64,000 nucleotides of DNA from Nevskiales bacterium (GTDB lineage Bacteria > Pseudomonadota > Gammaproteobacteria > Nevskiales > JBOICV01), in assembly GCA_050740255.1 (NCBI GenBank), contig JBOICV010000051.1:7118-71117 (forward strand). The letters are read 5' to 3'. The notes under the pieces are model-generated. The model was not told the DNA's origin, made no database searches, and was given only the letters and a program-made list of their open reading frames with translations. Shown here one piece after another: positions 28,840 through 64,000 of this stretch. The translations under genes were made by a program, and so were the position numbers. Each line of letters opens with the position of its first letter. The stretch's first letter is position 1.

Positions 28840-30861
28840 ATGTTGGTTGAATACGGTCTTTGGATCTCGCTGGCCTGCGGTCTGGCGGCTATCATTTACG
28901 GCGTGGTTTCGACGCGCTGGATTCTGGCCAAGTCGCCGGGCAATGCACGCATGCAGGAAATCGCCGCCGCCGTGCAGGAAGGCGCGATGGCCTATCTCAA
29001 TCGCCAGTACACCGCCATCGGCGTCGTCGGTGTGGCGCTGGTCGTGGCGCTGGGTCTGGCGCTCGACTGGTACACCGCCGTGGGCTTCATGGTCGGTGCG
29101 GTGCTGTCCGGCGCCACCGGCTACATCGGCATGAACATCTCGGTGCGCGCGAACGTGCGTACCGCGCAGGCCGCGCATGACGGCATGAACGCGGCGCTGG
29201 CCGTCGCCTTTCGCGGCGGCGCCATCACCGGCATGCTGGTGGTGGGCCTCGGCCTGATTGGCGTGGCCGGCTACTACATGGCGGTCAAGGCGATGGGCGT
29301 GAGCGAAGACACCGCTCTGCATGCGCTGGTCGGTTTAGCTTTCGGCGGCTCGCTGATCTCCATCTTCGCGCGTCTGGGCGGCGGCATCTTTACCAAGGGC
29401 GCGGACGTCGGCGCTGACCTGGTGGGTAAAGTCGAGGCTGGCATTCCCGAGGACGACCCGCGCAACCCCGCCGTGATCGCGGACAACGTCGGCGACAACG
29501 TCGGCGACTGCGCCGGCATGGCGGCTGACCTGTTTGAAACCTACGCCGTGACCGTGGTCGCGACCATGGTTCTCGGCGGCCTGATGGCGGCCACGCTCGG
29601 CGCGAACGCGGTGCTGTATCCGCTCGTACTCGGCGGCGTATCCATCATCGCCTCCATCATTGGCACCTTCTTCGTCTCGGCGGGTGAAGGCAAGAAGATC
29701 ATGGGCGCGCTGTACCGCGGCGTGATCGTCTCCGGTGTGCTGGCGGCGATCGCCTTCTATCCCATCACCAAGGCGTTTTTCACCGCCGAACTGGCGATGA
29801 ACCTGTACTGGTGCGCGCTGATTGGTCTGGCGCTGACCGGCGTGATCATGTGGATCACCGAGTACTACACCGGCACCACCTACGGCCCCGTGCAACACAT
29901 TGCGGCCGCCTCGCAGACCGGTCACGGCACCAATATTATCGCCGGCCTGGGCGTATCCATGAAGTCCACCGCCCTGCCGGTGCTGGCGGTCTGTGCGAGC
30001 ATCTTTGGCGCGTATGAACTCGCGGGCCTGTACGGCATCGCCATCGCGGCGACCGCGATGCTCTCGATGACCGGCATGATTGTGGCGCTCGATGCCTATG
30101 GCCCGATCACCGATAACGCCGGCGGTATCGCCGAGATGGCGCATCTGCCCAAGGAAATCCGCGCTATCACGGATCCACTGGACGCAGTGGGCAATACCAC
30201 CAAGGCGGTGACCAAGGGTTACGCCATCGGCTCGGCCGGTTTGGCCGCGCTGGTGCTGTTCGCGGACTACACGCATCAGCTCGCCGCCAGCAACCCTGGC
30301 GTGAAGTTCAGCTTCGACCTGTCCGATCACATGGTCATCATCGGCCTGTTCATCGGCGGCCTGGTGCCCTACCTGTTCGGCGCGATGGCGATGGAAGCGG
30401 TCGGCCGCGCGGCCGGCTCGGTGGTGGTTGAAGTGCGCCGCCAGTTCCGCGAGATCAAGGGCATCATGGAAGGCACAGCCAAACCCGAATACGGCACGGC
30501 GGTGGACATGCTGACCAAATCCGCGATCAAGGAAATGATCATCCCCTCGCTGCTGCCAATCTTCGTGCCCGTGCTGGTGGGTTTGATCCTCGGCCCGAAG
30601 GCCTTGGGCGGCGTGCTGATCGGCACCATCATCACCGGCTTGTTCGTCGCGATTTCGATGACCACTGGCGGCGGCGCCTGGGATAACGCCAAGAAGTACA
30701 TCGAGGATGGCCACTTCGGCGGCAAGGGTTCCGAGACGCACAAGGCCGCGGTCACCGGCGATACCGTCGGCGACCCCTACAAGGACACCGCCGGCCCGGC
30801 CATCAACCCGCTGATCAAAATCATCAACATCGTGGCGCTTTTGCTCGTACCTCTACTCTGA
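28840..30861 (+). CDS. hppA: membrane-bound proton-translocating pyrophosphatase
   Basis: I prefer the ATG at 28840 (MLVEYGLW...), 673 aa. Motifs [39 protein letters not shown] and [11 protein letters not shown]. Confidence 0.95.
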
Positions 30862-30923
30862 GTTCACCGCCTGTTTTTACAGTCGCGGCAGGGATGCCGC
30901 GTTCTGTTACCGGGATGTAGAAC

Positions 30924-30955
30924 AAGGCCCCGTACGCGGGGCTTTGTTATTTTTA
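30924..30955 (+). terminator. intrinsic terminator after hppA
   Basis: AAGGCCCCG-tacg-CGGGGCTTT, followed by gTTATTTTT. Confidence 0.65.
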
Positions 30956-31180
30956 GTTCCCAACTTCCGCTTTCGTTGGTGGTGGGATCGGGGCGCTGCA
31001 CTATCAGCTTTTCTACTTGTGGGGTGCGCCGAATGCCATCAGATCGATCTTGGTCGGCTTGAATCGACCCCTTTCTGCCATTTCCTTTTTTCTATTCTTG
31101 CGAATTATAGATGAAATGCAAGCTTCAACTGATCCTTCGTCCAATTGCCGGTTGACACTGCAATTCTCCAGCTGTTCCGA

Positions 31181-31591
31181 TTACACCCAATGGATCTTTA
31201 TCTCGCCCTCAACCTGTTTGAACTCCTTGTCGCCTGTCAGCAATTCGGTTTTCTTCTCTTTCGCGAGAGCTGCAGCAAAACAGTCTGCATATGACATCTT
31301 CCCTCTTGTCTTGAACAGGCCTGCGGCACGCGCCAACGGCCATGTCACGTCCACAAACTCGACGCCAAGCTGCCTCAGGTCGGTAATGGCCTTGTCAGCT
31401 TCGGCCTGGGAAACTTCCCGCGCGATGATGTACCAAACCTCCCCCGCATTCACCACGGACAGGAGCAGCGGGATACCATCTTTGTGGGCATCAGCGATCA
31501 GGTCGGCGACTGCCTGCCCCGAGCTTTCATCTTCCAGATAGGCGAGCACGGCCCAGGAATCCAGCACGATGCCCCTGGACTTGCGCGGCAT
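31181..31591 (-). CDS. vapC: PIN-domain toxin (VapC family)
   Basis: 136 aa. N-terminal acidic motif IVLDSWAVLAYL and C-terminal ADCFAAALA...LLTGDKEF. Its start overlaps the antitoxin stop by 1 nt. Confidence 0.85.
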   Translation of the reverse strand: MPRKSRGIVLDSWAVLAYLEDESSGQAVADLIADAHKDGIPLLLSVVNAGEVWYIIAREVSQAEADKAITDLRQLGVEFVDVTWPLARAAGLFKTRGKMSYADCFAAALAKEKKTELLTGDKEFKQVEGEIKIHWV

Positions 31592-31821
31592 CAGGTCTCG
31601 CGCTTCCGCTTTTTCTCCGCCGCGAGCGATTTCAGCAAGCCTTTACCTCGATACTTGCCGCGCAAACCCTGGATGTATTCGCGCGTGATGGGCGTCAGGA
31701 CAATCCTGTGTCCCGACTCCTCAACGTCAACCTGGATTCGCGTTCCTTCGGTAACTCCGAGCTGTCGCCGGATCTTCGAGGGGATGACGACCTGCCCCTT
31801 GACCGTCATGTATGTTTCCAT
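31591..31821 (-). CDS. vapB: AbrB/SpoVT/MazE-fold antitoxin (VapB)
   Basis: TVKGQVVIPSKIRRQLGVTEGTRIQV swapped-hairpin motif. 76 aa. Lies immediately upstream of the PIN gene. Confidence 0.8.
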   Translation of the reverse strand: METYMTVKGQVVIPSKIRRQLGVTEGTRIQVDVEESGHRIVLTPITREYIQGLRGKYRGKGLLKSLAAEKKRKRET

Positions 31822-32050
31822 AGAATCTCCTACTAGTGATATATAATCTTACATAACTTATAAAGTAAGTCAAATTAATTATGGCTTACTTACTGTGGGT
31901 GACGCGGATCCGCAAGCCAATTTCTGAACATAACCGAGAAATGACCGTGCCTGCCAGTGCTGGTCCACTCCAAAGTGGAGGTCTTTGACTCGGCGACGTC
32001 GGGCCTGGTTCTTTATAATCCTCTGCTCCTGTCCTACCTAGGAGCTTTTC

Positions 32051-33569: not shown

Positions 33570-34094
33570 CTAGGGCCGGATCTCGATCGGCGTGCCGTCC
33601 GGCACTGCTTGCCAGATTTCCTGGATGGCACCGTCGTGCACTGCGATGCAGCCGTCGGTCCAGTCCCATAACGCCAGAAAACCGGCGAGCCAGCCCCAGC
33701 CATTGGGCGAGCCATGCAGCATGATGTCGCCGCCCGGCGAAACGCCCTGCGCCCGCGCCTGCGCGCGGTCCTCGGCATTGGGATAGGAGATATGCAGGGA
33801 ACGGAAAAACCTGCTGCGCGAATTGCGTGAATTCAGCTTGTACAAACCCTCCGGCGTACGCTCATCGCCTTCGCGCTGCTTGTGACCGCTGGGGTTGCCG
33901 CCGAGCGAGATGCGGTAGGTCTTGATCACCTCACCACTGCGCATTAGCGACAGGCGCCGGTCGGATTTGTCGACCAGTACGCGATCTGCCCGCGGCAGCT
34001 TCGTGTCCACTTCTTGCGCCGCGTACCAGCCGTAAGCAAAGATGCCGCCAGCGAGGACCAGTGCCGCCAGCATGGCTAGTGCCAGCGTACGCAT
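33570..34094 (-). CDS. L,D-transpeptidase (YkuD domain)
   Basis: TPEGLYKL...IMLHGSP...TDGCIAV catalytic His/Cys motif. N-terminal signal/anchor. Confidence 0.85.
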   Translation of the reverse strand: MRTLALAMLAALVLAGGIFAYGWYAAQEVDTKLPRADRVLVDKSDRRLSLMRSGEVIKTYRISLGGNPSGHKQREGDERTPEGLYKLNSRNSRSRFFRSLHISYPNAEDRAQARAQGVSPGGDIMLHGSPNGWGWLAGFLALWDWTDGCIAVHDGAIQEIWQAVPDGTPIEIRP

Positions 34095-34975
34095 CAGGGA
34101 ATAGGCTCCTCCGCGCTGACGGTTTGCTGTTGCAGCAGTGATCCCAGCGGCGGCGCCAGCAACTCCGCCAACTCGGGCGTCAGCGGCAGTCCTTCCTGGA
34201 TGTCACAGGAAGCGGTCGTGGCTGCTTCCAGAAATTGATAGCGGCCGTCCGCGAAATATTCCTCGGGTGGCCGGCGCGTGGTTTCGAACAAGTCATAGCC
34301 TTGCTTGAGGTTTTGCCAGAAGCCGTGCCATGGCGACTTCTCGAAACGCTTGAGATTCGCCTCGGTGAGCGGGAACGGAAAGATATGAACCTTGAAATAA
34401 GGCTGGCCGGCGCGGATGGCGGCTTCGCCGAGCGTATAAATCTCCTCGATTCGGGGATCGGTCATGGCGATACAGCCCGAGGAGTTGCAGCCGCCGTGCA
34501 CCATGATGTTGGCGCCGGTGTATTTGTGAAACTGATCGTAGTCGTTGGGATAGCGCACGTTGAAAGCGAGATGGTAATCGCTGAAGGGGTGCATCCAGTG
34601 CGGGTTTACCGAGTAGAAACCCTCCGGCACCTGGTCATCGCCGCGCGAACGCTTAGGTCCCAGCCCGCCGGCAAATTCGCAGATGGGGTAGGTTTTGAAC
34701 AGCTTGAATGTTGCATCCTTCTGCTGGAGCCAGAGTTCCAGCTTGCGCGGTTGTTTGAAAATGCGCATGAAAACCGGCGCGCCCCATTCCAGCCCCTGCG
34801 TGGCCAGCTCACGCTTGAGCCGCGGCGTCACGCGAGCGCGCGCCTCGATGGATTCCTCGCTGTAGACGAGGCCGTATTCGTCGGCGATCTTGGTTTCCTC
34901 ATCGCTGCCGAAAGCGGCGCCGCTGCCCAGCGCCAGCACGACGCCAAGTGCGTATCTGCTCCAACTCGCCTTCAT
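34094..34975 (-). CDS. YafK-like L,D-transpeptidase-fold protein
   Basis: VPEGFYSV...IMVHGGCNSSGCIAMTDPRIEEIY. Signal peptide. 1-nt overlap with the downstream gene. Confidence 0.8.
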   Translation of the reverse strand: MKASWSRYALGVVLALGSGAAFGSDEETKIADEYGLVYSEESIEARARVTPRLKRELATQGLEWGAPVFMRIFKQPRKLELWLQQKDATFKLFKTYPICEFAGGLGPKRSRGDDQVPEGFYSVNPHWMHPFSDYHLAFNVRYPNDYDQFHKYTGANIMVHGGCNSSGCIAMTDPRIEEIYTLGEAAIRAGQPYFKVHIFPFPLTEANLKRFEKSPWHGFWQNLKQGYDLFETTRRPPEEYFADGRYQFLEAATTASCDIQEGLPLTPELAELLAPPLGSLLQQQTVSAEEPIP

Positions 34976-35026: not shown

Positions 35027-37510
35027 TTAACGCCCACGCGGCTTGGCGCGGGTAGTGGGCAGGGCTTGTGCCGGGTTATCGGGCCAGGGATGTCTCGGAT
35101 AACGCCCCTTCATGTCCTTTTTGACATCCAGATAACCACGCGCCCAAAACCCCGCCAGGTCTTGCGTTACCGCGATGGGCCGGCGCGCGGGTGAGAGCAG
35201 ATGCAGCACGAGCTTGAGGCGACCCTCGTTGACCGTCGGCGTGTCCGTACAGCCAAACATCTCCTGCAGTCTGACTTCCAGTGACGGCGCCTCGGGCGGG
35301 TTGTAGTGCAGCGCGTGGCGCTGACCCGAGGGCACGGCGATATGGGTTGGTGCAAGCCGCGTCAGCGACTGCTGGCGCGGATAGTCCAGTAAGTTGTTCA
35401 GTATGCCGATAAGGTCGAGCTGCGCGAGATGCGCGCGGCGCGTCACGCCATCCAGATAGGGTGCAAGCCAGCGGTCGAGCGCGGCCGGCAGCGTCGCATC
35501 ACCGACCTCCGGCCAGTCTTCCGCCGGCCGCCACGCGCGCAAGCTCATCACCCGGGCCTGCCACTGACGGGCTGCTTCCGTCCAGGGCAGGCAGCTCAAG
35601 CCGAGACTGCGGATGCCTTCCAGCATCGCCGCGCGCGCAGCCTCTCCCGCTTCGCGTAGCGGCCGCGCGCTCAGCACGATGGCGCCCAGCCGCTCCTGTT
35701 CCTGTGCCACGACTGACTCGGACTGCGCGTCCCAATAAACCACGGGTTTGCGCGTAATGCGCGGCGCGTGATCCGCGCGCACTTCGTCCTCGCTCAGCGC
35801 GACGGCCGCACGGATTTTCCGCGGAGGACCCGGGTCCCAGTGCGCAATCGCCAGCCATGGCTCGCGCGCGAGCGGATCGGTCTCGGGCAGGCGCGCTTCA
35901 CCGCCGTCCACGCAAAGAAACGCAGCTTCCTTCTGGCCACGCAGACCGTCGCGGCGCCAGGCGATGCGTTCCGGATAAGCCCAACTCACGATGCGCCCAA
36001 GCGGCGCATCGACCCAATCGGTTTCCGTTTCCTCGACCTGGCGTAAGAGCTGACGCGCTGAATCACGCACGCGCCGCGTCAGGCCAGATTCGGCGCGGCC
36101 CTTACGCACAGCGTTGATCAGCTCGGCCAGATCCGTTGTACCGCTTGAGCGTTCGTCGAGTATCGCGGCAGTCCACGCGGCGGGCGTGGCCAGCCCCTGA
36201 CGCCTTGCCTCCAGCAGCATGTGTGCGCGGCGCGGCATCGCCGGCAGGCGCGCCAATTCCCGGCCATGCGGCGTGATCCGGCCCTGCGGGTCGAGCGCAC
36301 CGAGCGCTTGTAGCAGCTCACGCGCGTAGTTCCAGTTGCTCTCCGGCGGCGCGTCGAGCAAGGCCAGCGCGGACGGGTTTGCATGACCCCAGGCCGCGAG
36401 CTCGAGCACGAAACGCGTCAAATCGGCGGCCAATAGCTCCGGCGTGTCATGCGCCGTCAAACGGCCATGCTGCTCCGCACTCCACAGCCGGTAGCAGACG
36501 CCGGGCGCCAGCCGGCCGGCGCGCCCGGCGCGCTGCTCGGCGCTCGCGCGCGACACGCGTACCGTATCGAGCCGGTTGGCACCGGCGCCTAAATCGAAAC
36601 GCGCCACGCGCACATAACCGCCGTCAACTACCGTGGTCACGCCCTCGACCGTGAGGCTGGTCTGAGCGAGATTGGTCGCCAGAATCACTTTGCGCCGGCC
36701 AGCCGGATCGGGCAGCAAAGCGGCGTCCTGCTCGGTGGCGGCAAGCTCGCCGTATAGCGGATACACACCGATAGCGCGGGCGGCAGCGTACTCATGTGCC
36801 TCCACGCGTCGTTGCGCAGCGCGGATTTCACGCGCGCCCGGCAGGAAGGCCAGAATGTCGCCGTCCGTCTCATCCAGGGCGCGCAATACCGCATTCGCCA
36901 GCGCGCTGTCGAACGGCTCCGCCGCGCGGGGTGTCGCGTAGCGGATATCGACCGGATAAAGCTGACCGCCGGCCTCGACTACCGGCGCGTCACCCAGCAG
37001 TTTGGCGACACGCTGGATGTCGAGCGTGGCGGACATGACCAATACACGCAGGGCGGGAACCAGATTCGCGCGGGCGTCGAGCGTCAGCGCCAGCGCGAGA
37101 TCGGCGTCGAGACTGCGCTCGTGAAACTCGTCAAAGATCACGAGGCCGACACCCGCTAACTCCGGATCGCTTTGCAGGCGGCGCGCCAGCAGACCTTCGG
37201 TCAGCACCTCGATGCGGGTCCGGCTGGAGATGCGCCGCTCAAAACGGATTTGATAGCCGATGGTCTGGCCGACGCTTTCGCCGACCAGGCTCGCCATCCG
37301 CGCCGCGGCGGCGCGCGCCGCCACCCGCCGCGGCTCCAACAGCACAATGCTTTTGCCCTGCAACCACGGTTCCTCAAGCAGGGCCAGCGGGATGGTCGTG
37401 GTCTTGCCTGAACCCGGTGGTGCGGCGAGCACCGCCGCACCCTGCCCGGCCAAAGCCCGGCGCAAATCGAGCAGCGCACGCAGCACCGGATAGTCAGGGA
37501 GTTTCATCAT
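35027..37510 (-). CDS. hrpB: ATP-dependent RNA helicase HrpB
   Basis: DEAH-box motifs (APPGSGKTT, DEFHERS, SATL, QRAGRAGR) and an HrpB-type C-terminal extension. 827 aa. Confidence 0.9.
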   Translation of the reverse strand: MMKLPDYPVLRALLDLRRALAGQGAAVLAAPPGSGKTTTIPLALLEEPWLQGKSIVLLEPRRVAARAAAARMASLVGESVGQTIGYQIRFERRISSRTRIEVLTEGLLARRLQSDPELAGVGLVIFDEFHERSLDADLALALTLDARANLVPALRVLVMSATLDIQRVAKLLGDAPVVEAGGQLYPVDIRYATPRAAEPFDSALANAVLRALDETDGDILAFLPGAREIRAAQRRVEAHEYAAARAIGVYPLYGELAATEQDAALLPDPAGRRKVILATNLAQTSLTVEGVTTVVDGGYVRVARFDLGAGANRLDTVRVSRASAEQRAGRAGRLAPGVCYRLWSAEQHGRLTAHDTPELLAADLTRFVLELAAWGHANPSALALLDAPPESNWNYARELLQALGALDPQGRITPHGRELARLPAMPRRAHMLLEARRQGLATPAAWTAAILDERSSGTTDLAELINAVRKGRAESGLTRRVRDSARQLLRQVEETETDWVDAPLGRIVSWAYPERIAWRRDGLRGQKEAAFLCVDGGEARLPETDPLAREPWLAIAHWDPGPPRKIRAAVALSEDEVRADHAPRITRKPVVYWDAQSESVVAQEQERLGAIVLSARPLREAGEAARAAMLEGIRSLGLSCLPWTEAARQWQARVMSLRAWRPAEDWPEVGDATLPAALDRWLAPYLDGVTRRAHLAQLDLIGILNNLLDYPRQQSLTRLAPTHIAVPSGQRHALHYNPPEAPSLEVRLQEMFGCTDTPTVNEGRLKLVLHLLSPARRPIAVTQDLAGFWARGYLDVKKDMKGRYPRHPWPDNPAQALPTTRAKPRGR

Positions 37511-37555
37511 CCGCTATGTTAGCTTTACAGCGATTTTGCGCTCCGGAACACCATC

Positions 37556-37921
37556 ATGCTGACCCCTATCAATATCGTCATCGCCCTGAATCTGGCTGCC
37601 TTGCTGATTCTCGTCTGGCGTTTCGCGCGTCTGCAGCGGCTCGGCACCGCGCTCGCAGTCGCCGCAGCGCCCATCGTGCCGCCGCCGACCTCGCCACCGG
37701 AACTGGAAGCACTGCTGGCCGAAGGCCGGCGTATGTTGATCAGCATCGAGATCCTCAACCCGATGCAGCTTGCCGCGAAGGAATCCTGGTTTGCGAGCGT
37801 GTTCGGCACGCTCTCGCCGGCTCTGATCAAAAAAATAGTCAACGAACGCACGCAGAAAATGTTGGAAACCCAGCTAAAGGACTATGGCGTCGAAGCGGAC
37901 GTAAGGCTGCACCGTGCTTGA
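37556..37921 (+). CDS. small N-terminally anchored protein, unknown function
   Basis: One N-terminal TM helix (INIVIALNLAALLILVW). First gene of a tightly packed three-gene operon. Confidence 0.55.
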   Translation: MLTPINIVIALNLAALLILVWRFARLQRLGTALAVAAAPIVPPPTSPPELEALLAEGRRMLISIEILNPMQLAAKESWFASVFGTLSPALIKKIVNERTQKMLETQLKDYGVEADVRLHRA

Positions 37922-38360
37922 ACTGATGTTGGCGGCTTGCTGCCTGCTGACTCTGCTGGCTGCAGTTCAGGCGGTGAGTCTGGCGCGTCAGCAGCGCGCG
38001 TTGGCTTTGCAACTGCGCCGCGTCGCCATCCATCAAGCCGAAACCAGGCTGCTGGCTGCAGCCCGCAAGCGGCTCGCCGATGTGCAGGAATTGACCGAAG
38101 CTGCGCTTGCCGGCAGTACCACCGCGGTACGTAGCATTCACCGGGGCATCGCCGCCATTCCCTTCACCATTCTGGAAAACATCCCCGCGACGCGCGACAC
38201 CACCAAGCTGGTGCGCGGCATTCATGACCTCACTGCAGACACGGTGTATGGCGCCATCTCGGCCATTAACCGCGCGCTCGGCAGTCAGCTGCGTCAATCG
38301 CTCAAACCGAACGGGCAGGATGCGCCGGGTTCGGCGCGCCTGCCGCCAAAAGAAGAATAG
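37914..38360 (+). CDS. small Arg-rich helical protein with N-terminal hydrophobic segment, unknown function
   Basis: The GTG start overlaps the upstream stop (GTGCTTGA). 148 aa. Ends 6 nt before the methyltransferase start. Confidence 0.55.
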   Translation: MLELMLAACCLLTLLAAVQAVSLARQQRALALQLRRVAIHQAETRLLAAARKRLADVQELTEAALAGSTTAVRSIHRGIAAIPFTILENIPATRDTTKLVRGIHDLTADTVYGAISAINRALGSQLRQSLKPNGQDAPGSARLPPKEE

Positions 38361-38366
38361 ATACGC

Positions 38367-39317
38367 GTGAGCGAAATCGAATACCAGCGCAAGCTGCTCG
38401 GCGACGGCGTTCGCAATCAGGCCTTTCACGCGGCCTTGCAACGCGTGATCGTACCGGGTGAAACGACACTCGTGGATGTCGGCGCCGGCACTGGCTTTCT
38501 GAGCTTTCTCGCACTTACGCTCGGCGCGCAGCATTGCACGCTGATCGAGTACAGCGACACGCTAAAGCTGGCGCAGGATATTGCCCGCCGCAACCGGCTC
38601 AGCAAGCTGAGTTTCATTCAAAAGCATTCCACTGAAGTAAAAAAGCTTGCTCGGTCGGACGTGGTGCTCTCGGAAACGCTCGGTAACTACGCGCTGGAGG
38701 AAAACCTCATCGAGACGCTCAACGACGCCCAGCGCTTTCTAAAGCCCGGCGGGGTGGTCATCCCCGGCGCCGTGCAGCAGTTCGTCGCGCCGGTGATCAG
38801 CGGCCGGCTACAGAAGGAATTGGATGTGTGGCCGCGGGTAGGTTTCGGCCTCGATCTCGCGCCGGCACGCCAGGTCGCGCTAAATAATATGTACGTGAAA
38901 AGCGTCATGCCGGCGGACATCGGCGGCGATACGGAAGTCGCGCGTTGCTGGGATCGCCTGCTATTCGCTGCGGATCAGGAAGCCCCGGCGAGCCTGCGAC
39001 AGAGCCGGCAGAGCTGGAGCAGCGACGAGCTTCGCGCACGCGGCGCGCAACAGGTATACGGCTATGTGCTCTGGTGGGAAGCGGAGCTGGTGCCCGGCAT
39101 CAGATTAAGTACCTCACCCTTCGCGCCCGCGACCCATTGGGAGCAGGTTTATCTACCCTTGCTCGACGCCGTGGCGCTCGGGCCGAAGCAGCAAATCGAG
39201 CTCACACTGAAATCCGATACGCGGGCAGCTGTGTGCGTTACTTGGCACACACGCCTGCTTAGCGGCGTCCAGTGCTTGCAGGATGTGAAGCAGGATATGG
39301 CGAAAGGCCGGCTGTAG
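38367..39317 (+). CDS. protein arginine N-methyltransferase (PRMT)-like class I SAM methyltransferase
   Basis: Motif I VDVGAGTGFLS. Double-E-loop equivalent LSETLGNYALEE (compare SEWMGYxLxxE). THW-loop equivalent STSPFAPATHWEQ (compare STSPxxxxTHWKQ). A PRMT-like beta-barrel-length C-terminal half. Confidence 0.8.
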   Translation: MSEIEYQRKLLGDGVRNQAFHAALQRVIVPGETTLVDVGAGTGFLSFLALTLGAQHCTLIEYSDTLKLAQDIARRNRLSKLSFIQKHSTEVKKLARSDVVLSETLGNYALEENLIETLNDAQRFLKPGGVVIPGAVQQFVAPVISGRLQKELDVWPRVGFGLDLAPARQVALNNMYVKSVMPADIGGDTEVARCWDRLLFAADQEAPASLRQSRQSWSSDELRARGAQQVYGYVLWWEAELVPGIRLSTSPFAPATHWEQVYLPLLDAVALGPKQQIELTLKSDTRAAVCVTWHTRLLSGVQCLQDVKQDMAKGRL

Positions 39318-39362
39318 TTCCTGCAACGCTGGAAATAAATCGGTTTACCTTGCAGCTCGCGG

Positions 39363-40802
39363 TCAACGCTGGTCGTCGGTGTCGGCGCTGACCGGGTGCC
39401 GCTCCAGCGGTATGCCGCCCTTGATCACGGCACGAATCCGCGACAGCGCATGCAGGTCGGTGCTTGGATCGCCTTCAACCAGCAGCAGGTCAGCCTGTTT
39501 CCCCGCGGCGACGATGCCGAACTCCGGCTCCTTGCCGTTGGCAAGAAAGCGGGCGGCATCCACGGTGGCGGCTCGGATCGCCTCGGCGGGTGTCAATCCA
39601 GCCTCGGTGAGCAGATGCAACTCGCGGTGTAGCCCGGGGCCCGGGAACATACCCGTCTGCGTATCGCTTCCGGCAAGAATCGTGACTCCGGCGGCGTGCA
39701 GGCGCCGCACATTGTCGCGCCACGCGGGCCGCAGTGGCCGCAGCATTTCCAGGAAGGGGCGGAAGTATTCAAGATTCTTGGCCTTCGGCACATGGTTGAA
39801 TGCGGCAAGAACCTCGGCCGACACGGTCTCGCGTTCGAGCGGCGTTGGCTCGCGCGGGCCCTGTCCGAGCAATGCGTGGCTGTCGAATACAGCCATGGTC
39901 GCCACCATCGGAATCCGGTAGCCGGCGAGCCGTGCGATCTGGCCGTCCGGGATCCGCTCCTTGTAAACGCCATGTACCCAGAGCGCGACTCCGGCATCGG
40001 CGGCGTCGATGGCGTCTTCCACCGACCCGATGTGCGCCACCGCACGCAGGCCGCGCTGCCTGGCTTCGTCCACTGCCGCGGCCACGACCTCGCGGCTAAT
40101 ACGCGGCGCCTGATCAGGGATGTGATCCACCGACAGCTTGATGACATCGGCGCCGAGCCCGGCGATTTCCTGCACCGCGGCCCGCGCCTGTTCGGCGGTG
40201 TCCACCTGTCGCGTGAAGCGCGGGATCAGATACCAGCGGATCCACCACGGCGCGAGGTATTCGAGAAGGGCCACCGGATGCCCGCCGGTAGCGGTCACCA
40301 TTGGCCCGGCGGCAAAAATCCGCGGCCCTAGCAGTTCGCCGGACATCACCTGCGCGCGACGCTTGAAGGCTTGGCTCGAGAGATCGGCCGGGTCGAGGAC
40401 GGTGGTCACACCGCAGTAGAGGTAGGAGAGCATATTGCGCTCGGGATCCGGCAATTCGCCCACCCAGCTGGGCGCCGATGCGTTGCCGAGGTGGCCATGC
40501 ATGTCGATCAGCCCCGGCAGCAGCGTCGCGCCGCTACCGTCTATTTCAAGCGCGCCGGCCGGGGCCCTGGCTTGGCCCACCGGCGTCACGGCCGCAATCC
40601 GATCTCCCGCCAGGAGCACGTCACGATTCGACGTCACGGCGCCGCTTTCGACGTTCAGCACCGCCACGTTCTTGATCAACACCGCCGACGGCTTTACCGA
40701 CGGCGGCTGCACCAGTTCCGGCCCTTGGTCGCCGCAGGCGCTGACTAGCAGCGTCGCGGCGATCACAGCCAAAGCCATTGCTGTTGCGTGGTATCCCTTC
40801 AT
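39363..40802 (-). CDS. periplasmic amidohydrolase-family metallohydrolase (lipoprotein)
   Basis: Lipobox LLVSAC. PGLIDMHGHL metal-binding HxH motif. Amidohydrolase C-terminal blocks. Confidence 0.85.
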   Translation of the reverse strand: MKGYHATAMALAVIAATLLVSACGDQGPELVQPPSVKPSAVLIKNVAVLNVESGAVTSNRDVLLAGDRIAAVTPVGQARAPAGALEIDGSGATLLPGLIDMHGHLGNASAPSWVGELPDPERNMLSYLYCGVTTVLDPADLSSQAFKRRAQVMSGELLGPRIFAAGPMVTATGGHPVALLEYLAPWWIRWYLIPRFTRQVDTAEQARAAVQEIAGLGADVIKLSVDHIPDQAPRISREVVAAAVDEARQRGLRAVAHIGSVEDAIDAADAGVALWVHGVYKERIPDGQIARLAGYRIPMVATMAVFDSHALLGQGPREPTPLERETVSAEVLAAFNHVPKAKNLEYFRPFLEMLRPLRPAWRDNVRRLHAAGVTILAGSDTQTGMFPGPGLHRELHLLTEAGLTPAEAIRAATVDAARFLANGKEPEFGIVAAGKQADLLLVEGDPSTDLHALSRIRAVIKGGIPLERHPVSADTDDQR

Positions 40803-40903
40803 GGTGATCTCTCCCTGTTTTGCTGATTCACGTTAGTTATTCTTGGCGCGGCCAATGTCAGAACGGGCGCCGGTGGCGGCGGCAACGCGATGGCTGAGCG
40901 ATT

Positions 40904-42277
40904 TCACGCCGCAATCCCGCATGCGGTCTCAAGCTCGGCGAGCGCGTGCTCGGTGAAATCCAGCAGGCGCTGCATGCTGGGTATGGACCGCCGGCAGGCG
41001 GTGTAGCCGAAAGCCACCTGGTCGCAATAGCTGGTCAGAGTGATGTTGAGCGCCTGACCGTCAATCGGAATCGAAACCGGATAGCTCTCCTCCAGCCGCG
41101 CGCCGTTCCAGTACAGCGGCCTGGTGGGGCCCGGGACATTGGAAATCACCACGTTGAACGCCGGTCGGATGCGATCAAAGCCGATCAAGGAGGTGGCGAA
41201 CATCGGGCTGAGCGCGGCTGCGGAATAACCCATCTGTTCCAAACGGCTCATCTGCGACATGCGCTCTTTGGCGCGCTGAGTTGAAGCCACGATCGTTTCC
41301 AGCCGCTGCGCGGGGTCTTCGATCTGGCTGCCCAGGTTGGCCAGGATCACCGCGACCTGGTTGCCGCCTTCCGGCCCATCCGCTGCACGTACTGAAACCG
41401 GCACCATCGAGATCAATGCTTGCTCAGGCAGCGCATTGTGCGCGATCAGATATTCGCGCAGGGCCCCGGCACACATGGCCAGCGCCACATCGTTGACGGT
41501 CGCCCCGGCCGCTTTGCCGACCTTCTTGATGCGCGCCAGGGAGAAGGATTGCGCGGCGAAGCGGCGTGAGCTGCTGATGCGCACGTTGAACATCGTCGGC
41601 GGTGCCTGGTAGGGCGTCGCATCGGTTAAATCGTGCCGGCTTTTACGCAGCAAATCCTTCAGGCCGCGCGCCGCGCCGGGGATGATCCGGTAGTTGACTC
41701 CGAGGGTTTTCACGAGCGCATTGAGCGGGCTGCCCGGATCCGCCAGTACGACGTCGTCTTGCTCGCGCTTAGCCCTCGGCCTGGCCCAGGGCGGGGGCAT
41801 ATCGCGTTCACCGGGGTCCTCGCTAAGCGCCTTGCGCGCTTCGCGCGTTGCAGCCACCCCATCGAACATGGCGTGATGCACCTTGGAGAAAATGGCGAAG
41901 CGTCCATCGTGCAGCCCCTCGATCACATTGGTTTCCCACAGCGGGCGGCTGCGATCCATGAGACTGCCGTGCAGGCGCGAAGTCATCGCCAGCAGCTCGC
42001 GGATACGGCCGGGCTGCGGCAGCGCGAGGTGCCGGAAGTGATGATCCAGATCGAACTGCTCGTCTTCCCGCCACAACCAGCTGCCGCGGAATACCAGACG
42101 CTGGTTATAGGGTGTCAGCGGCGCCTGATGAACGCGCATCTTCTCGACCAGCTGGCCGACGAACTCGGACGATGCTCCTGCGGGCAGGCTGAAAAGTTGC
42201 AGGCCGGCAACATGCATCGGCTGACGCCGGTGTTCCGCAATCAGAAACATGGCATCCATGGGGGACAAGGCTTTCAT
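40904..42277 (-). CDS. wax ester synthase / diacylglycerol acyltransferase (WS/DGAT)
   Basis: Catalytic HHAMFDG (HHxxxDG). N-terminal LSPMDAMFL. 457 aa. Confidence 0.9.
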   Translation of the reverse strand: MKALSPMDAMFLIAEHRRQPMHVAGLQLFSLPAGASSEFVGQLVEKMRVHQAPLTPYNQRLVFRGSWLWREDEQFDLDHHFRHLALPQPGRIRELLAMTSRLHGSLMDRSRPLWETNVIEGLHDGRFAIFSKVHHAMFDGVAATREARKALSEDPGERDMPPPWARPRAKREQDDVVLADPGSPLNALVKTLGVNYRIIPGAARGLKDLLRKSRHDLTDATPYQAPPTMFNVRISSSRRFAAQSFSLARIKKVGKAAGATVNDVALAMCAGALREYLIAHNALPEQALISMVPVSVRAADGPEGGNQVAVILANLGSQIEDPAQRLETIVASTQRAKERMSQMSRLEQMGYSAAALSPMFATSLIGFDRIRPAFNVVISNVPGPTRPLYWNGARLEESYPVSIPIDGQALNITLTSYCDQVAFGYTACRRSIPSMQRLLDFTEHALAELETACGIAA

Positions 42278-58696: not shown

Positions 58697-60655
<1,959 letters not shown>

Positions 60656-60687
60656 GACAGCTGGAATTCTCCGAATGTCCGCTGTCA

Positions 60688-61233
60688 CTAATCCTCTGCA
60701 CGCAGCCGCGTCACGAATTCGCGATACTTTTCCAAACCGTTTTCTTCTGCCGCCCATCGTTCCACATCTTTCATGTTCACGGACTGACGCTTGGTAATCG
60801 CAACCGCCTGTTCAAGACTCTGCCTGTCATTCCAATGCACATACGCCGCAAGCCGGTCTTTGACTGAATCCGTCGGCGTCAGCAGCCTTACCGTCCCGTA
60901 TTTGGTCTGTCGCTCTGCAAAGCGGTGCAACACTTCCCGCCCTACCGTCGGCACACTTCCCGGAAACTCCACATGAAAAGGCGAATCGGGGTGTCTGAAG
61001 TGACGACCGTCTGCTTTCTTAAACCCCAAGCGGAGCATGGTTTTCCCGACAGCCTTCGCCATGCCCGGTACGATGAAATCCAGATCCCAGGATTCGAACT
61101 CATTTGCCGTATAAATGGAGACCACCGAGCCGCCGGTGAGAATCGCATCAATGCCGTCGGCCCGAAGCGCCTCCGCTACGATTGCAGCCACTTCCTCACG
61201 TGAAAGTCCCGGCCGTATGGCTGATTTCCTCAT
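60688..61233 (-). CDS. minimal nucleotidyltransferase-fold protein (candidate toxin/effector)
   Basis: A GGS-x13-DLD pattern (TGGSVVSIYTANEFESWDLDFIV) fits the NTase G[GS]-x9-13-Dh[DE]h signature. 181 aa. Its start overlaps the stop of the upstream wHTH gene by 1 nt. The region is A/T-richer by eye. Confidence 0.55.
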   Translation of the reverse strand: MRKSAIRPGLSREEVAAIVAEALRADGIDAILTGGSVVSIYTANEFESWDLDFIVPGMAKAVGKTMLRLGFKKADGRHFRHPDSPFHVEFPGSVPTVGREVLHRFAERQTKYGTVRLLTPTDSVKDRLAAYVHWNDRQSLEQAVAITKRQSVNMKDVERWAAEENGLEKYREFVTRLRAED

Positions 61234-61562
61234 TATTTGGGCTTTCCTGTCCTGCGCGGCCTGCGCCGCTGCATGAAGTACCGCCGGCGCTCCACCTCCG
61301 GCAGCAGTTCCACTGCTCTGGCCAACAAGGCTCTAAGTTCAGGTAACAGGGCATAGCGCGGATTCCATGAATAAATCCGTGTGCGCCCCTTGAGCTGACT
61401 GACCAGCACGCCCACCCGCTCCAAGCGGATTAACTGTTTATAAACTTCGCTGACCGATATCCCAAATGCCGTAGCCACTTCGCGGGCATAAGTCTCCCCG
61501 TAGCTCTGCATGTACAACAGAACCTTTTCCGCGGCAGCACTGCCAAACAGGTCGGCTATCAT
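61233..61562 (-). CDS. winged-helix (ArsR/MarR-like) DNA-binding protein (candidate antitoxin/regulator)
   Basis: YAREVATAFGISVSEVYKQLIRLERVGVLVSQLKGRTRIY HTH plus wing. Basic C-terminal tail. 109 aa. Confidence 0.65.
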   Translation of the reverse strand: MIADLFGSAAAEKVLLYMQSYGETYAREVATAFGISVSEVYKQLIRLERVGVLVSQLKGRTRIYSWNPRYALLPELRALLARAVELLPEVERRRYFMQRRRPRRTGKPK

Positions 61563-61581
61563 GTTCTATATTATAGAACAT
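61561..61581. promoter_or_regulatory. 21-bp palindrome at the wHTH gene start (candidate autoregulatory operator)
   Basis: ATGTTCTATA-T-TATAGAACAT overlaps the start codon. A further GAGAACAT half-site lies about 15 nt upstream. Confidence 0.4.
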
Positions 61582-61685
61582 ATGATCTATAAATGAGAAC
61601 ATATTAAATGTGGCGTGCTGGAATCGCTAGTTACCATTAACCGCACCGCGCGGCATTTCGTCCGCGTGGCGCGCTGCGACTCAAA

Positions 61686-62054
61686 TCAGCTTCCGCCAAA
61701 AATCGCCAGCAGCAGTAGCGCGTATCCCGTAACCGCAGCGGCCGCGTGGCCGACGACGAAGTGAATGGGCAGTGGCAGTTGCTTACGGTGAAACTGCAGA
61801 TTGATCGTTAAGCCACCGATTGCCGCCAGCACAAATAAACCCAGCGCGATCTGCGCCATCTTGGGTACCCCCACAGTAAATGCGGCGTAGGCCAGCAGCA
61901 CCACACCGGTCGCTGCCGCCAGTCCATGCCCGATCGGCATCCAGTCAGGCGGCCGCGGCGTACCGCGAAAACGCATCACCGCCATGGTCAGACCGCCAAG
62001 AGCTGCGAGCCCAAGCAGGATCGCTGCGTTCTGCATTGTTGCGAAGGTTTCCAT
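61686..62054 (-). CDS. small 4-TM membrane protein, unknown function
   Basis: I prefer the ATG at 62054, after GGAGGA (the track opens at the TTG at 62069). Four hydrophobic helices. G/C-rich, unlike its neighbours. Confidence 0.6.
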   Translation of the reverse strand: METFATMQNAAILLGLAALGGLTMAVMRFRGTPRPPDWMPIGHGLAAATGVVLLAYAAFTVGVPKMAQIALGLFVLAAIGGLTINLQFHRKQLPLPIHFVVGHAAAAVTGYALLLLAIFGGS

Positions 62055-62156
62055 TGTCAGTTCCTCCAATTTCTAAGCGTGATTGAAGTGGAACTTGCCG
62101 GGTACCACCTTGCCCAGCACTAGCCCAATAATAGCCAAAAAAGGCCGCCGTGTTTC

Positions 62157-64000
62157 TTAATCGTTAGCCAGGCGCATCGCTTGCACGATCCGTGTCGTCT
62201 CAATGCTCACCGTCGTCACGCGGGCAAGAAGTTCAATAACTTTTTCCTTGTAGTCCGCGAAACGGTAGGTGTTGAATTTCTCGCGGATGGTCGGGTCCTT
62301 GGGCGTCTTTTCCTTGTATTGGTCCAGCACCCACTCCAGCGCACTGCGGTTACCGAGCTTGTAGTCCCAGGCTTCGGACGGGATACCAGACAGTACAGTT
62401 TCACTGTCGAGCCGGATTGTCCCCGCATCCCTGTCGGCTTTGAGCATTGCCTTGGGTGTCACGGCCCCCTCTCCACGCTTGCCCTTTTTTCTCCCCTCCC
62501 CCGCCTGCGGGGGAGGGCTGGGTGGGGGCGTATCTGTGCGCTTCAGCCTGAATTGCTCAACCGATTCATAGCCGATGTGCAGGTCCATCAGCGCCTTGCC
62601 CCAGTCCGCCCACTGCCAGAAGTCGTCGTAGAACGGGATGCGCGGAAATTCGCGCTTGAGGTTCAGCGCGTATTTCTCGCGGTAGGCCGGGTTGTGCAGA
62701 ACGCCGTAGACATAATGGAAGATCGCTTCCTTGGTGACGGGGCGATCCTTCTTGCCGCGGCCGGGCTGGTAGTGCTTGCGGAACTTATCCAGTGCCCAGT
62801 CCGTCACGCCGGCATTTGGCTGCGAATCTAGCTCGCCGCCGCAAAACTCAATGACCACTGCAGCACTCGGGACAAAGAAATCCAGCGACGCTGGTGTTGA
62901 AGTCGCTATAGCACTAAAGTCGGAGCGTCCGCCCGTAGAGATCGCGATAAACCAACTCTTGGCAGGTTTATCAGGCTCAAAGCTTCTCAACACCCCTCTG
63001 CGATCAATAAATAGTTCCGAATCGTAAATTACACGGGTGCAAAAGGGACGGTACGCCAAAATCTTAACTTGCGCCGGATTGAGCGGCTCTGTTTTGCCCG
63101 CGCTGCGGTGTCGCTTAAGGGTCTCAGACCATTTAATGGCCGGGTCGTATCCATCGCTCGATGCTTCATAGTGCTGACTTAGCACGCGCACCTTTTTAAG
63201 CAGATGTTCCGTTTCGAAGTCGATCAACCAAGAATCCCGATTCGTCGAAACCCCTAAAGCCGAGGCCATCATGATCGAACGCGGATTTTTCTTTGAGCCC
63301 TTTGCTGGAACAAGCGTCAGGCTGCCGCCAAAGTCGCCCCCAAAACCGCCGAGCCATCGTCCTTGATCGTCAAGACTAATCGACTCCATCGCCAATTCGC
63401 TCAGCATTACTTTCGATAACAGAGCAAGTCTTTGATCCCGAGTTGGTTCACGTACTCGAACGTACCTAACTTGACGGCTCTTCTTTTGACGGTCGTCCCG
63501 CACTAGGAAGCAGATTGCTACGCCGATTTTTATTCCGAATACGTTCGCTTTAGCCTCGATCGCGTCCTGCCGAAGATCGCCGCCGAGATCCACGATGTAC
63601 GTGGCGTTGAACTCCTCTTCTATGCAACGCCTGAAACCATCGGCCTCTTTGGCATCCAGGAAATTTCTATTTGTGATGAATGCGATGATCCCTTGCTCGG
63701 CGATTCTGTCACTCGCCCACCGGTAAAAACGGCTGTACATGTCATAGCGTTTCGTTTTCGTGGCAGAGCTTCGATCGATGTAGGTTTCCTTGATGCGCTT
63801 GTCGATCTCCGGGTATTCGCGGTTCGTGTTGTTGTCGTTCTCGTTCGGTTGGTTCGAGTTGTACGGTGGGTTGCCGATGATGACGCTGATGGTCTTGCTG
63901 TTCTGGCGCTTGATGCGGCCTATGTTCTCGTCGCTGACAGAGCCGAATAGGTCATCCATATGCCCTCTGTGTTTGCGTAGCGCGCTGGTGTTGTCTAGCG
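62157..64000 (-). CDS. type ISP-like restriction/modification enzyme, methyltransferase plus C-terminal specificity part (5' end outside the window)
   Basis: N6-adenine MTase motif IV IGNPPYN. Type-ISP-C-like block YVYGVLHNPAYREKYALNLKREFPRIPFYDDF. The reading frame stays open upstream of the track's first Met through to position 64000. Confidence 0.8.
   Translation of the reverse strand, partial: LDNTSALRKHRGHMDDLFGSVSDENIGRIKRQNSKTISVIIGNPPYNSNQPNENDNNTNREYPEIDKRIKETYIDRSSATKTKRYDMYSRFYRWASDRIAEQGIIAFITNRNFLDAKEADGFRRCIEEEFNATYIVDLGGDLRQDAIEAKANVFGIKIGVAICFLVRDDRQKKSRQVRYVRVREPTRDQRLALLSKVMLSELAMESISLDDQGRWLGGFGGDFGGSLTLVPAKGSKKNPRSIMMASALGVSTNRDSWLIDFETEHLLKKVRVLSQHYEASSDGYDPAIKWSETLKRHRSAGKTEPLNPAQVKILAYRPFCTRVIYDSELFIDRRGVLRSFEPDKPAKSWFIAISTGGRSDFSAIATSTPASLDFFVPSAAVVIEFCGGELDSQPNAGVTDWALDKFRKHYQPGRGKKDRPVTKEAIFHYVYGVLHNPAYREKYALNLKREFPRIPFYDDFWQWADWGKALMDLHIGYESVEQFRLKRTDTPPPSPPPQAGEGRKKGKRGEGAVTPKAMLKADRDAGTIRLDSETVLSGIPSEAWDYKLGNRSALEWVLDQYKEKTPKDPTIREKFNTYRFADYKEKVIELLARVTTVSIETTRIVQAMRLAND
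62491..62528. repeat. GC-rich palindromic repeat (family P variant) inside the type ISP ORF
   Basis: CTCCCCTCCCCCGC-ct-GCGGGGGAGGG-ctg-GGTGGGGG, read in frame on the minus strand as PPPSPPPQAGEG. Confidence 0.6.

Follow-up and report, generated by a model that had tools for sequence, protein, structure and literature searches.

A PRMT-family gene and an unnamed pair of small-protein genes packed together in a Nevskiales lineage

Introduction

Do three tightly packed bacterial genes encode one dedicated system for arginine methylation, or do they bring together an enzyme and a gene pair that are usually found apart? This question is raised by a stretch of DNA of 64,000 nucleotides (nt) from a Nevskiales bacterium (assembly GCA_050740255.1, contig JBOICV010000051.1, positions 7,118 to 71,117 of the forward strand), which is called the window below. 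Next to the helicase gene hrpB, the window contains three open reading frames (ORFs) on the + strand. They encode proteins of 121 amino acids (p121), 148 amino acids (p148) and 316 amino acids, exactly where the original prediction, made from the letters of the DNA, had placed them. The 316-residue product had been read as a protein arginine methyltransferase (PRMT), and the trio as a self-contained module. The PRMT family is commonly regarded as eukaryotic.

Our preferred answer, to which we assign a probability of roughly 0.6, is that the locus is made up of two units lying side by side, a bacterial PRMT that is conserved and a membrane-anchored pair that is independent of it, packed in one operon in this lineage. 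The finding is thus an uncharacterised bacterial member of a known enzyme family together with an unnamed small-protein pair. Loci used for comparison are cited by L numbers.

Results

The 316-residue protein belongs to the PRMT family

A search of all PDB sequences with the 316-residue protein (phmmer) yielded 71 matches. All 60 matches listed were protein arginine methyltransferases, and the best among them was PRMT6 (E = 1.7e-26; query residues 2-271). In the HMMER alignment to PRMT6, VDVGAGTG falls on motif I (VLDVGAGTG), CTLIEYS with residue E61 falls on VYAVEAS and its post-I acidic residue, and LKPGGVVIP falls on motif III. The double-E loop SETLGNYALEE stands opposite SEWMGYGLLHE, and the THW region STSPFAPATHWEQ stands opposite STSPLHPATHWKQ, with PATHWEQ facing PATHWKQ. 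The S-adenosylmethionine (SAM) motif, the double-E loop and the THW loop had all been predicted at these positions, and each is aligned to its PRMT6 counterpart.

The protein is divided into a Rossmann SAM domain (about residues 1-135) and a PRMT beta-barrel (about residues 139-310). Pfam PRMT_C (PF22528) matched residues 139-282 with 39.2 bits, above its cut-off of 27. An AlphaFold2 model made with 20 homologues reached a pLDDT of 89.5 and a pTM of 0.88, and the best 50 Foldseek matches of this model in the PDB were all type I PRMTs (PRMT6, CARM1 and Naegleria PRMT1; TMq 0.73-0.79), with 4c08 at the top (E=1.6e-24, TMq 0.78). The C-terminal half, which had been noted for its PRMT barrel length, is recognised as such a barrel by the profile as well as by the fold matches, and sequence search, profile and modelled structure agree on the family placement. 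At the position of the dimerisation arm, the model, which is a monomer model, has short helices at residues 147-152, 155-158 and 165-169, at lower confidence (block pLDDT 71-77).

Conservation was checked at 14 SAM-binding, arginine-binding or catalytic positions across a set of 46 homologues from bacteria, the most distant of which are about 45% identical. Twelve positions (D13, R16, D37, G39, G41, G43, E103, E112, P133, T256, H257 and W258) were invariant in 46/46 homologues, while E61 and G129 were each conserved in 45/46. Furthermore, the N-terminus (S2 E3 I4 E5) is invariant across the family, which confirms the start codon of the gene and implies that no upstream extension is missing. 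As judged from its sequence and predicted fold, the protein is a canonical member of the PRMT family, and we regard this assignment as secure. It is most likely soluble and presumably cytoplasmic, with SAM- and guanidinium-binding machinery that appears intact.

A reading of the gene as part of a defence system was rejected, as the PADLOC match concerned only the generic methyltransferase core (mad2, residues 8-132).

Distribution of the PRMT family

In the protein database, 1437 relatives of the PRMT were found at E<=1e-3. The best 120 of these are 54-86% identical, and the named sources among them are Nevskiales (Solimonas, Fontimonas, Stenotrophobium, Stagnimonas, Sinimarinibacterium and Nevskiaceae). 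Orthologues with 53-61% identity occur in at least six named genera (Solimonas, Fontimonas, Sinimarinibacterium, Nevskia, Stenotrophobium and Stagnimonas), and homologues are present in the cultured non-pathogenic species Solimonas variicoloris DSM 15731, Fontimonas thermophila and Sinimarinibacterium flocculans DSM 104150. In a survey with each species represented by one genome, 38 loci contained a clear member of the family. Copies with 45-50% identity were found in metagenome-assembled genomes labelled Hyphomicrobiaceae, Planctomycetota, Spirochaetes and Peribacteria. The bacterial PRMT family is already annotated in bulk, and some homologues even carry the label 'protein arginine N-methyltransferase 1' (at JGI, and in one NCBI record). 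In the literature searched, we found no paper characterising a bacterial enzyme of this type that has both the double-E and the THW machinery in full; the earlier impression that such homologues are sparsely characterised holds for this literature.

Two observations concern individual members of the family. Locus L036 (DATLBT010000031.1) is labelled Verrucomicrobiia, has the gene order hrpB-tesB-PRMT of the Nevskiales, and its PRMT clusters with those of L007 and L014; its bin label is probably wrong. In three loci outside the Nevskiales (L025:4936-6936, L035:5461-6945 and L039:3820-6012), the ORFs with the PRMT domain are longer (494-731 amino acids from the first in-frame start), and their N-terminal part has no Pfam match. 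This length could reflect a true N-terminal extension or an over-extension of ORFs at high GC (guanine plus cytosine) content.

The p121/p148 pair

The largest Kyte-Doolittle averages over 19 residues were 2.38 for p121 (residues 2-20) and 2.22 for p148 (residues 5-23), and in both proteins this hydrophobic N-terminal helix is followed by 3-4 basic residues. This combination predicts an inner-membrane tether with a cytoplasmic C-terminal part. The single membrane helix expected for p121 was thus recovered, and the hydropathy profile corrects the earlier picture in that p148 appears to be membrane-anchored as well. In p121, the transmembrane helix is followed by a proline-rich linker and a conserved C-terminal domain, with I66 L67 N68 P69 invariant (ten aligned homologues). 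The model of p148 (pLDDT 91.5) consists of two helices, at residues 2-88 and 91-130, and its transmembrane helix runs into the long first helix. The description of p148 as Arg-rich applies only mildly: it contains 14 Arg in 148 residues (9.5%), and no RGG/GAR tract was found in it. Residues R94 and R101 are nearly invariant and R127 is invariant.

Neither p121 nor p148 matched any entry in Pfam, NCBIfam or the PDB, and the family profiles of both proteins gave 0 matches against PDB sequences. When Pfam was run on 27 members of the p148 family, we obtained four chance-level matches, each in a single member (E 0.03-0.08), and on 7 longer members none. Foldseek with the p148 model returned nothing significant (best E = 1.2). 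The p148 family is large: at E<=1e-3 it comprises 672 cluster representatives, of which almost all are 120-180 amino acids long, and at E<=1e-10 it still has 258.

The association of the two genes was surveyed in 37 metagenome loci anchored on p148 (L078-L114), which include marine TARA contigs and span 41-71% GC. Upstream DNA of >=400 nt was available in 31 of these loci, and p121 was located directly upstream of p148 on the same strand in 31/31. The same order was found in L070-L077, L115, L117 and L120, with overlaps of 4-23 nt in most. The neighbours of the pair varied widely, and included an SDR gene with an outer-membrane efflux protein, DUF748/AsmA, PspA, alpha/beta-hydrolases, a DEAD helicase, GGDEF and a metallo-beta-lactamase-fold protein. 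In L090, the pair is coupled to a DUF748/AsmA-like gene. The pair also occurs without a PRMT in L077 and in Algiphilus aromaticivorans (L070). L077 has the order PGAP1-like hydrolase, 115-residue protein, 130-residue protein, MacB/FtsX permease. In Algiphilus, genes for proteins of 124 and 152 residues lie between hrpB and tesB, and tesB overlaps the gene for the 152-residue protein. The constant adjacency of p121 and p148, together with their occurrence without a PRMT, argues for an autonomous and essentially obligate two-gene pair.

Gene neighbourhood of the PRMT

The comparison of neighbourhoods covered about 6 kb on each side of each locus. The most conserved neighbour of the PRMT in Nevskiales is hrpB, which is divergent from it in 16 GTDB Nevskiales loci (tblastn) and also in L073-76, L115, L117 and L120. 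A gene for an acyl-CoA thioesterase II (TesB) lies near the PRMT in most Nevskiales loci; the TesB label was first given by eye and then backed by blastp to Pfam-annotated TesB. The gap between hrpB and the PRMT is free of genes and 18-119 nt long in L001, L005, L009, L019 and L033. It contains a possible MOSC-type gene on the opposite strand in L004, L015, L017 and L018 (a label by eye, unconfirmed), and a TesB-like gene in L007, L014 and L036. The slot between hrpB and the PRMT is thus a variable spot in Nevskiales, which may be empty or hold a possible MOSC gene, a tesB-like gene or the small-protein pair.

Outside the Nevskiales, the PRMT is directly flanked by mutually unrelated genes (MscS, RecA, another methyltransferase and PD40), which indicates that there is no shared context. 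Greedy clustering of ORFs across phyla, in which antisense ORFs at high GC are a confounding factor, revealed no conserved partner of the PRMT beyond hrpB and tesB. Candidate substrates rich in RG/RGG were sought among 60 ORFs of the window, and none reached the threshold of >=5 RG/GR dipeptides per 30 amino acids.

Linkage of the pair and the PRMT

Single-sequence tblastn proved too insensitive to detect the small proteins at PRMT loci, and was replaced by searches with hidden Markov models (HMMs). With these models, the pair was found upstream of the PRMT in 0/35 species-representative loci that had >=1 kb of upstream DNA. Conversely, a PRMT was found downstream of the pair in 0/24 unbiased metagenome loci with >=600 nt of downstream DNA. 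PRMT genes without the pair include L001, L005, L009, L019, L033, L119 and others.

Yet the order hrpB-p121-p148-PRMT recurs in at least six other Nevskiales arrangements (L073-75, L076, L078, L115/116, L117/118 and L120). The PRMTs of three of these are 78% (L115/116), 73% (L117/118) and 58% (L120) identical to the copy in the window. The stop codon of p148 and the start codon of the PRMT overlap by 4 nt (GTGA or ATGA) in L073, L076, L115 and L120, and the two genes are spaced by 3-6 nt in the window and L117. This recurrence of the trio with translational coupling implies that the linkage is real but facultative. The idea of a self-contained module therefore survives in part: the coupled trio recurs, but most genomes lack synteny of the pair and the PRMT.

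When 46 PRMTs were placed in a neighbour-joining tree, the genes linked to the pair were located on several branches, interleaved with genes without the pair. Moreover, L076 and L120 have the intact order hrpB-p121-p148-PRMT-tesB. As far as gene order and sequence indicate, the pattern fits an old arrangement of this kind from which components were lost many times.

Linkage left hardly any trace in the proteins themselves. None of the PRMT alignment columns was specific to the pair-linked lineages (0 columns), and R94, R101 and R127 of p148 are equally conserved in copies without a nearby PRMT. Only four p148 columns tracked linkage, all weakly and with phylogenetic confounding; one of them is an Arg. 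The lack of linkage-specific PRMT columns and the conservation of the arginines regardless of the PRMT speak for an unchanged role of the enzyme, whether or not the pair is present. Nothing in these comparisons indicates that p148 is a dedicated substrate, as had been suggested.

A p148 motif in PGAP1-type esterases

A core of ~55 residues of p148, with the pattern HRxIAxxPFxxLxxxPxxxxxxxxRxxHDxxxDxVY, is also found in the N-terminal region of PGAP1/DUF676 serine esterases (p148 profile against esterase N-termini: E 2e-9 to 9e-8). The core-bearing esterases are those of L010:3468-4805, L012:2735-4138, L013:2792-4108, L020:8484-9917 and L021:10147-12666. In the Solimonas loci L010, L012 and L013, the esterase gene is located two genes downstream of the PRMT (PRMT-tesB-esterase), and it is farther off in L020 and L021. 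This motif is what the esterases of Solimonas and Nevskia have in common with p148. They differ in its setting: in p148 it comes after a transmembrane helix and a long helix, in a protein without a catalytic domain, whereas in the esterases it precedes an alpha/beta-hydrolase domain. The fusion of the core to an esterase, together with neighbours of a lipid or envelope flavour, is a hint at a role of the pair in the biology of membranes or lipids.

Layout of the locus in the window

The features of the locus are listed in Table 1. The trio is tightly packed on the + strand and divergent from hrpB on the - strand. At the p121/p148 junction, the two genes overlap by 8 nt (GTGCTTGA), and the GTG of p148 lies 2 nt ahead of the TGA stop of p121; the TAG stop of p148 is followed by 6 nt and then by the GTG of the PRMT. 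The predicted operon-like packing is thus seen directly in the DNA. A sigma-70 consensus scan of 37300-39600 gave 0 promoter-like sites, and terminator-like sites in the scan around the trio were not more frequent than in shuffled sequence. The GC content of the PRMT gene matches that of the flanking DNA (0.63-0.66).

Table 1. Positions of hrpB, the small-protein pair, the PRMT gene and their motifs in the window
Feature	Position	Strand	Description
hrpB	35027..37510	-	827-aa DEAH-box ATP-dependent RNA helicase HrpB; Pfam HrpB_C 177 bits, DEAD, Helicase_C, CON_HrpB
hrpB/p121 divergent intergenic region	37511..37555		45 nt between start codons; presumed promoter region
p121	37556..37921	+	ATG start; 121-aa ORF; unnamed family; first gene of the pair
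p148	37914..38360	+	GTG start; 148-aa ORF; unnamed family; second gene of the pair
p148 conserved core motif	38139..38258	+	H76...A80..F84..L87..P91...H104 D105...VY; invariant alignment columns
PRMT gene	38367..39317	+	GTG start; 316-aa ORF; Rossmann SAM domain and PRMT beta-barrel
SAM-binding motif I	38472..38495	+	VDVGAGTG, PRMT residues 36-43
Double-E loop	38670..38702	+	SETLGNYALEE, PRMT residues 102-112; E103 and E112
THW loop region	39108..39146	+	STSPFAPATHWEQ, PRMT residues 248-260

On the 3' side of the PRMT, the window has a convergent gene for a 479-residue amidohydrolase, and beyond it genes for a WS/DGAT wax-ester synthase and an epimerase. In the closest relatives (L115:6954-7946 and L117:7034-8026), a 330-residue epimerase/NmrA-like gene converges directly on the PRMT. 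The amidohydrolase and WS/DGAT genes interposed in the window (39363-42277) between the PRMT and the epimerase gene, where the closest relatives have none, look like a lineage-specific insertion. On the far side of hrpB, L115:1907-2410 and L117:1-2189 have small toxin-antitoxin-like genes (Unstab_antitox, PIN, HTH_3). In the window, two YkuD L,D-transpeptidase genes (33570-34975) are found there, and no toxin-antitoxin-like genes.

The GC content of the window, with a background of about 0.62-0.65, dips to 0.57 at 30001-32000 and to 0.54-0.58 at 60001-64000, and the GC skew is strongly negative at its 3' end. The low-GC stretches may be foreign or differently composed DNA.

Discussion

A proposed reading as two adjacent units

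We propose that the locus combines two units that would function independently of each other. The first unit (38367-39317) would be a SAM-dependent enzyme that most likely mono- or dimethylates Arg residues of one or more cellular proteins common to these bacteria. The second unit (37556-38360) is an autonomous, widely distributed cassette of two genes, encoding two small inner-membrane proteins that are each predicted to be tethered by an N-terminal helix. The helical or small cytoplasmic domains of p121 and p148 would probably work as a complex. In the lineage of the window, as in six or more further arrangements from Nevskiales, this cassette occupies the variable slot between hrpB and the PRMT. 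Given the translational coupling of the pair to the PRMT there, a single mRNA most likely covers all three genes. The coupling is facultative, with each unit usually found without the other.

Several points weigh against this proposal. The overlap of 4 nt between p148 and the PRMT is kept across PRMTs as divergent as 58%, which suggests selection for co-expression and possibly a functional tie. The neighbour-joining tree is rough and without support values, and repeated insertion of the pair, instead of repeated loss, may also account for the pattern. Since only about 6 kb per side were covered, the pair may lie elsewhere in genomes that have no pair next to the PRMT. A p148-like core does lie near the PRMT in another form, namely the fused esterases in the order PRMT-tesB-esterase of L010, L012 and L013. 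The sequence is present in three cave-metagenome DNA runs only, with no RNA runs containing it. Finally, as seen in the alignment to PRMT6, the protein lacks the alpha-X helix that carries the YFxxY motif at the N-terminus of eukaryotic type I PRMTs. The protein starts at MSEIEYQRKLLGD, just past this motif, such that query residue 2 corresponds to PRMT6 chain residue 25 or 55. Furthermore, the positions of M48 and M155 in PRMT1 presumably correspond to L10 and L114 here, a lead from our own reading of the PRMT6 alignment combined with PRMT1 residue numbering. Given the missing helix and the apparent Leu at both positions, we place the protein in the PRMT family and not in a product-type subclass.

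Alternative explanations

If the trio were instead a dedicated three-gene module, a complex of p121 and p148 would anchor the PRMT at the inner membrane, or p148 would be its substrate, or both. The tight packing in the window, the 4-nt overlaps kept in several divergent lineages and the presence of the trio on several branches of the PRMT tree all speak for such a module. So do the conserved R94, R101 and R127 of p148, and the fusion of its core to a PGAP1 esterase is what one would expect of an enzyme-docking element. However, the same arginines are conserved as well in copies without a PRMT, no PRMT residue tracks linkage, p148 lacks an RGG/GAR-type motif, and elsewhere the pair is coupled to other genes, namely tesB in Algiphilus and the DUF748/AsmA-like gene in L090. 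Moreover, the pair was upstream of the PRMT in 0/35 GTDB species loci, and a PRMT was downstream of the pair in 0/24 metagenome loci. We consider a dedicated module unlikely.

A broader version of the anchoring idea is that p121 and p148 form a modular docking platform at the inner membrane, which recruits cytoplasmic enzymes: the PRMT here, TesB in Algiphilus, and a PGAP1-type esterase by fusion in Solimonas. That the p148 core docks enzymes is a lead rather than a finding, and we rate the platform as a doubtful, speculative option. If true, it would amount to a membrane-tethered bacterial system for protein-arginine methylation acting on envelope- or lipid-associated targets. To our knowledge, there is no eukaryotic or bacterial precedent for such a membrane-docked deployment of a PRMT.

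The enzyme might also act on a guanidino group outside ribosomally made cellular proteins, such as that of a peptide natural product, free arginine, or an arginine-bearing lipid or metabolite. Genes of lipid metabolism are repeatedly found in the vicinity (PGAP1-like esterases, tesB in most loci of Nevskiales, and in the window WS/DGAT), and the closest bacterial relatives of eukaryotic PRMTs are, according to Aravind and co-workers, peptide methylases of secondary-metabolite operons (PMC3417536). In contrast, the neighbourhoods inspected contained no genes for nonribosomal peptide synthetases (NRPS), dioxygenases or amine oxidases. The protein has also kept the full PRMT beta-barrel and, as far as the model shows, the arm region for handling protein substrates, and every listed match to a solved structure, by sequence or by fold, is a protein arginine methyltransferase. 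A non-protein substrate is hence improbable in our estimation.

Far less probable still is a recent acquisition from a eukaryote, or a secreted effector that methylates host proteins. The strong similarity to metazoan PRMT6, and the prediction that Legionella encodes PRMTs of unknown role (PMC10117894), might suggest such an origin or function. However, the GC content of the gene equals that of its surroundings, homologues sharing 53-61% identity are spread across free-living Nevskiales, where synteny with hrpB and tesB is conserved, the protein shows no sign of a long N-terminal extension (residue 2 aligns with the start of the PRMT core), and the source of the DNA is a cave metagenome.

A generic class I methyltransferase misread as a PRMT, for instance PrmA or a small-molecule enzyme like UbiG/UbiE, is effectively refuted: Pfam PrmA and Methyltransf_31/25/11 and NCBIfam UbiG, ArsM and PrmA do match residues about 23-132, and one NCBI homologue is named '50S ribosomal protein L11 methyltransferase', but these matches are confined to the Rossmann core and far under their cut-offs (TIGR00406 20.2 vs 183.15, NF001785 22.6 vs 188, UbiG 21.1 bits vs 103), whereas the C-terminal half exceeds the PRMT_C cut-off, the double-E and THW residues are invariant, and all 60 listed PDB sequence matches and the top 50 fold matches are PRMTs.

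Significance and comparison with known systems

With two adjacent units as the preferred reading, each unit has an interest of its own. The homologues in cultured relatives bring within reach the question whether PRMT-type arginine methylation takes place in free-living bacteria, and on which substrates. They also make it open to test whether eukaryotic PRMTs descended from such bacterial enzymes, or the reverse. The p121/p148 pair is an unnamed and widespread pair of small membrane-anchored proteins with hundreds of sequence clusters and no Pfam model, and is itself a candidate for a new system associated with the envelope or with lipids.

Among known systems, the eukaryotic type I PRMTs (PRMT6, PRMT1/HMT1, PRMT8 and CARM1) have the same two-domain fold, a Rossmann domain and a beta-barrel, and the helical arm inserted in their barrel has a probable counterpart in the model. 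They share with the bacterial protein motif I, the post-I Glu, the Arg that binds the SAM carboxylate (R16), the double-E loop, motif III and the THW loop, and its 316 residues equal the length of the PRMT catalytic core. The identity by structural alignment is 20-24%. In contrast to them, the protein described here is bacterial and operon-encoded, has neither the YFxxY helix nor a targeting domain at its N-terminus, and begins directly with the counterpart of helix alpha-Y.

The PRMT-like peptide methylases described by Aravind et al. are likewise bacterial members of the wider PRMT radiation, and eukaryotic PRMTs are derived there from peptide methylases of secondary-metabolite operons. They demonstrate that domains of the PRMT type also exist outside eukaryotes. 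In this source, these enzymes are encoded in operons with NRPS, dioxygenase or amine-oxidase genes, or form domains of giant synthetases (PMC3417536). Our gene, in contrast, stands alone in a housekeeping-type neighbourhood with hrpB and tesB, and is conserved across a bacterial order.

PrmA, the lysine methyltransferase of ribosomal protein L11, has the class I Rossmann SAM domain in common with our protein (Pfam PrmA matches residues 23-132). However, our protein lacks the N-terminal substrate-recognition domain of PrmA, and PrmA lacks the C-terminal PRMT barrel. The predicted PRMTs of Legionella pneumophila, whose role is listed as 'unknown', and Rv1988 of M. tuberculosis, which is not a PRMT, are also bacterial proteins proposed or shown to methylate arginine (PMC10117894). 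In that source, they are discussed as host-directed effectors of pathogens, and this description sets them apart from the gene in the window, which belongs to free-living environmental bacteria.

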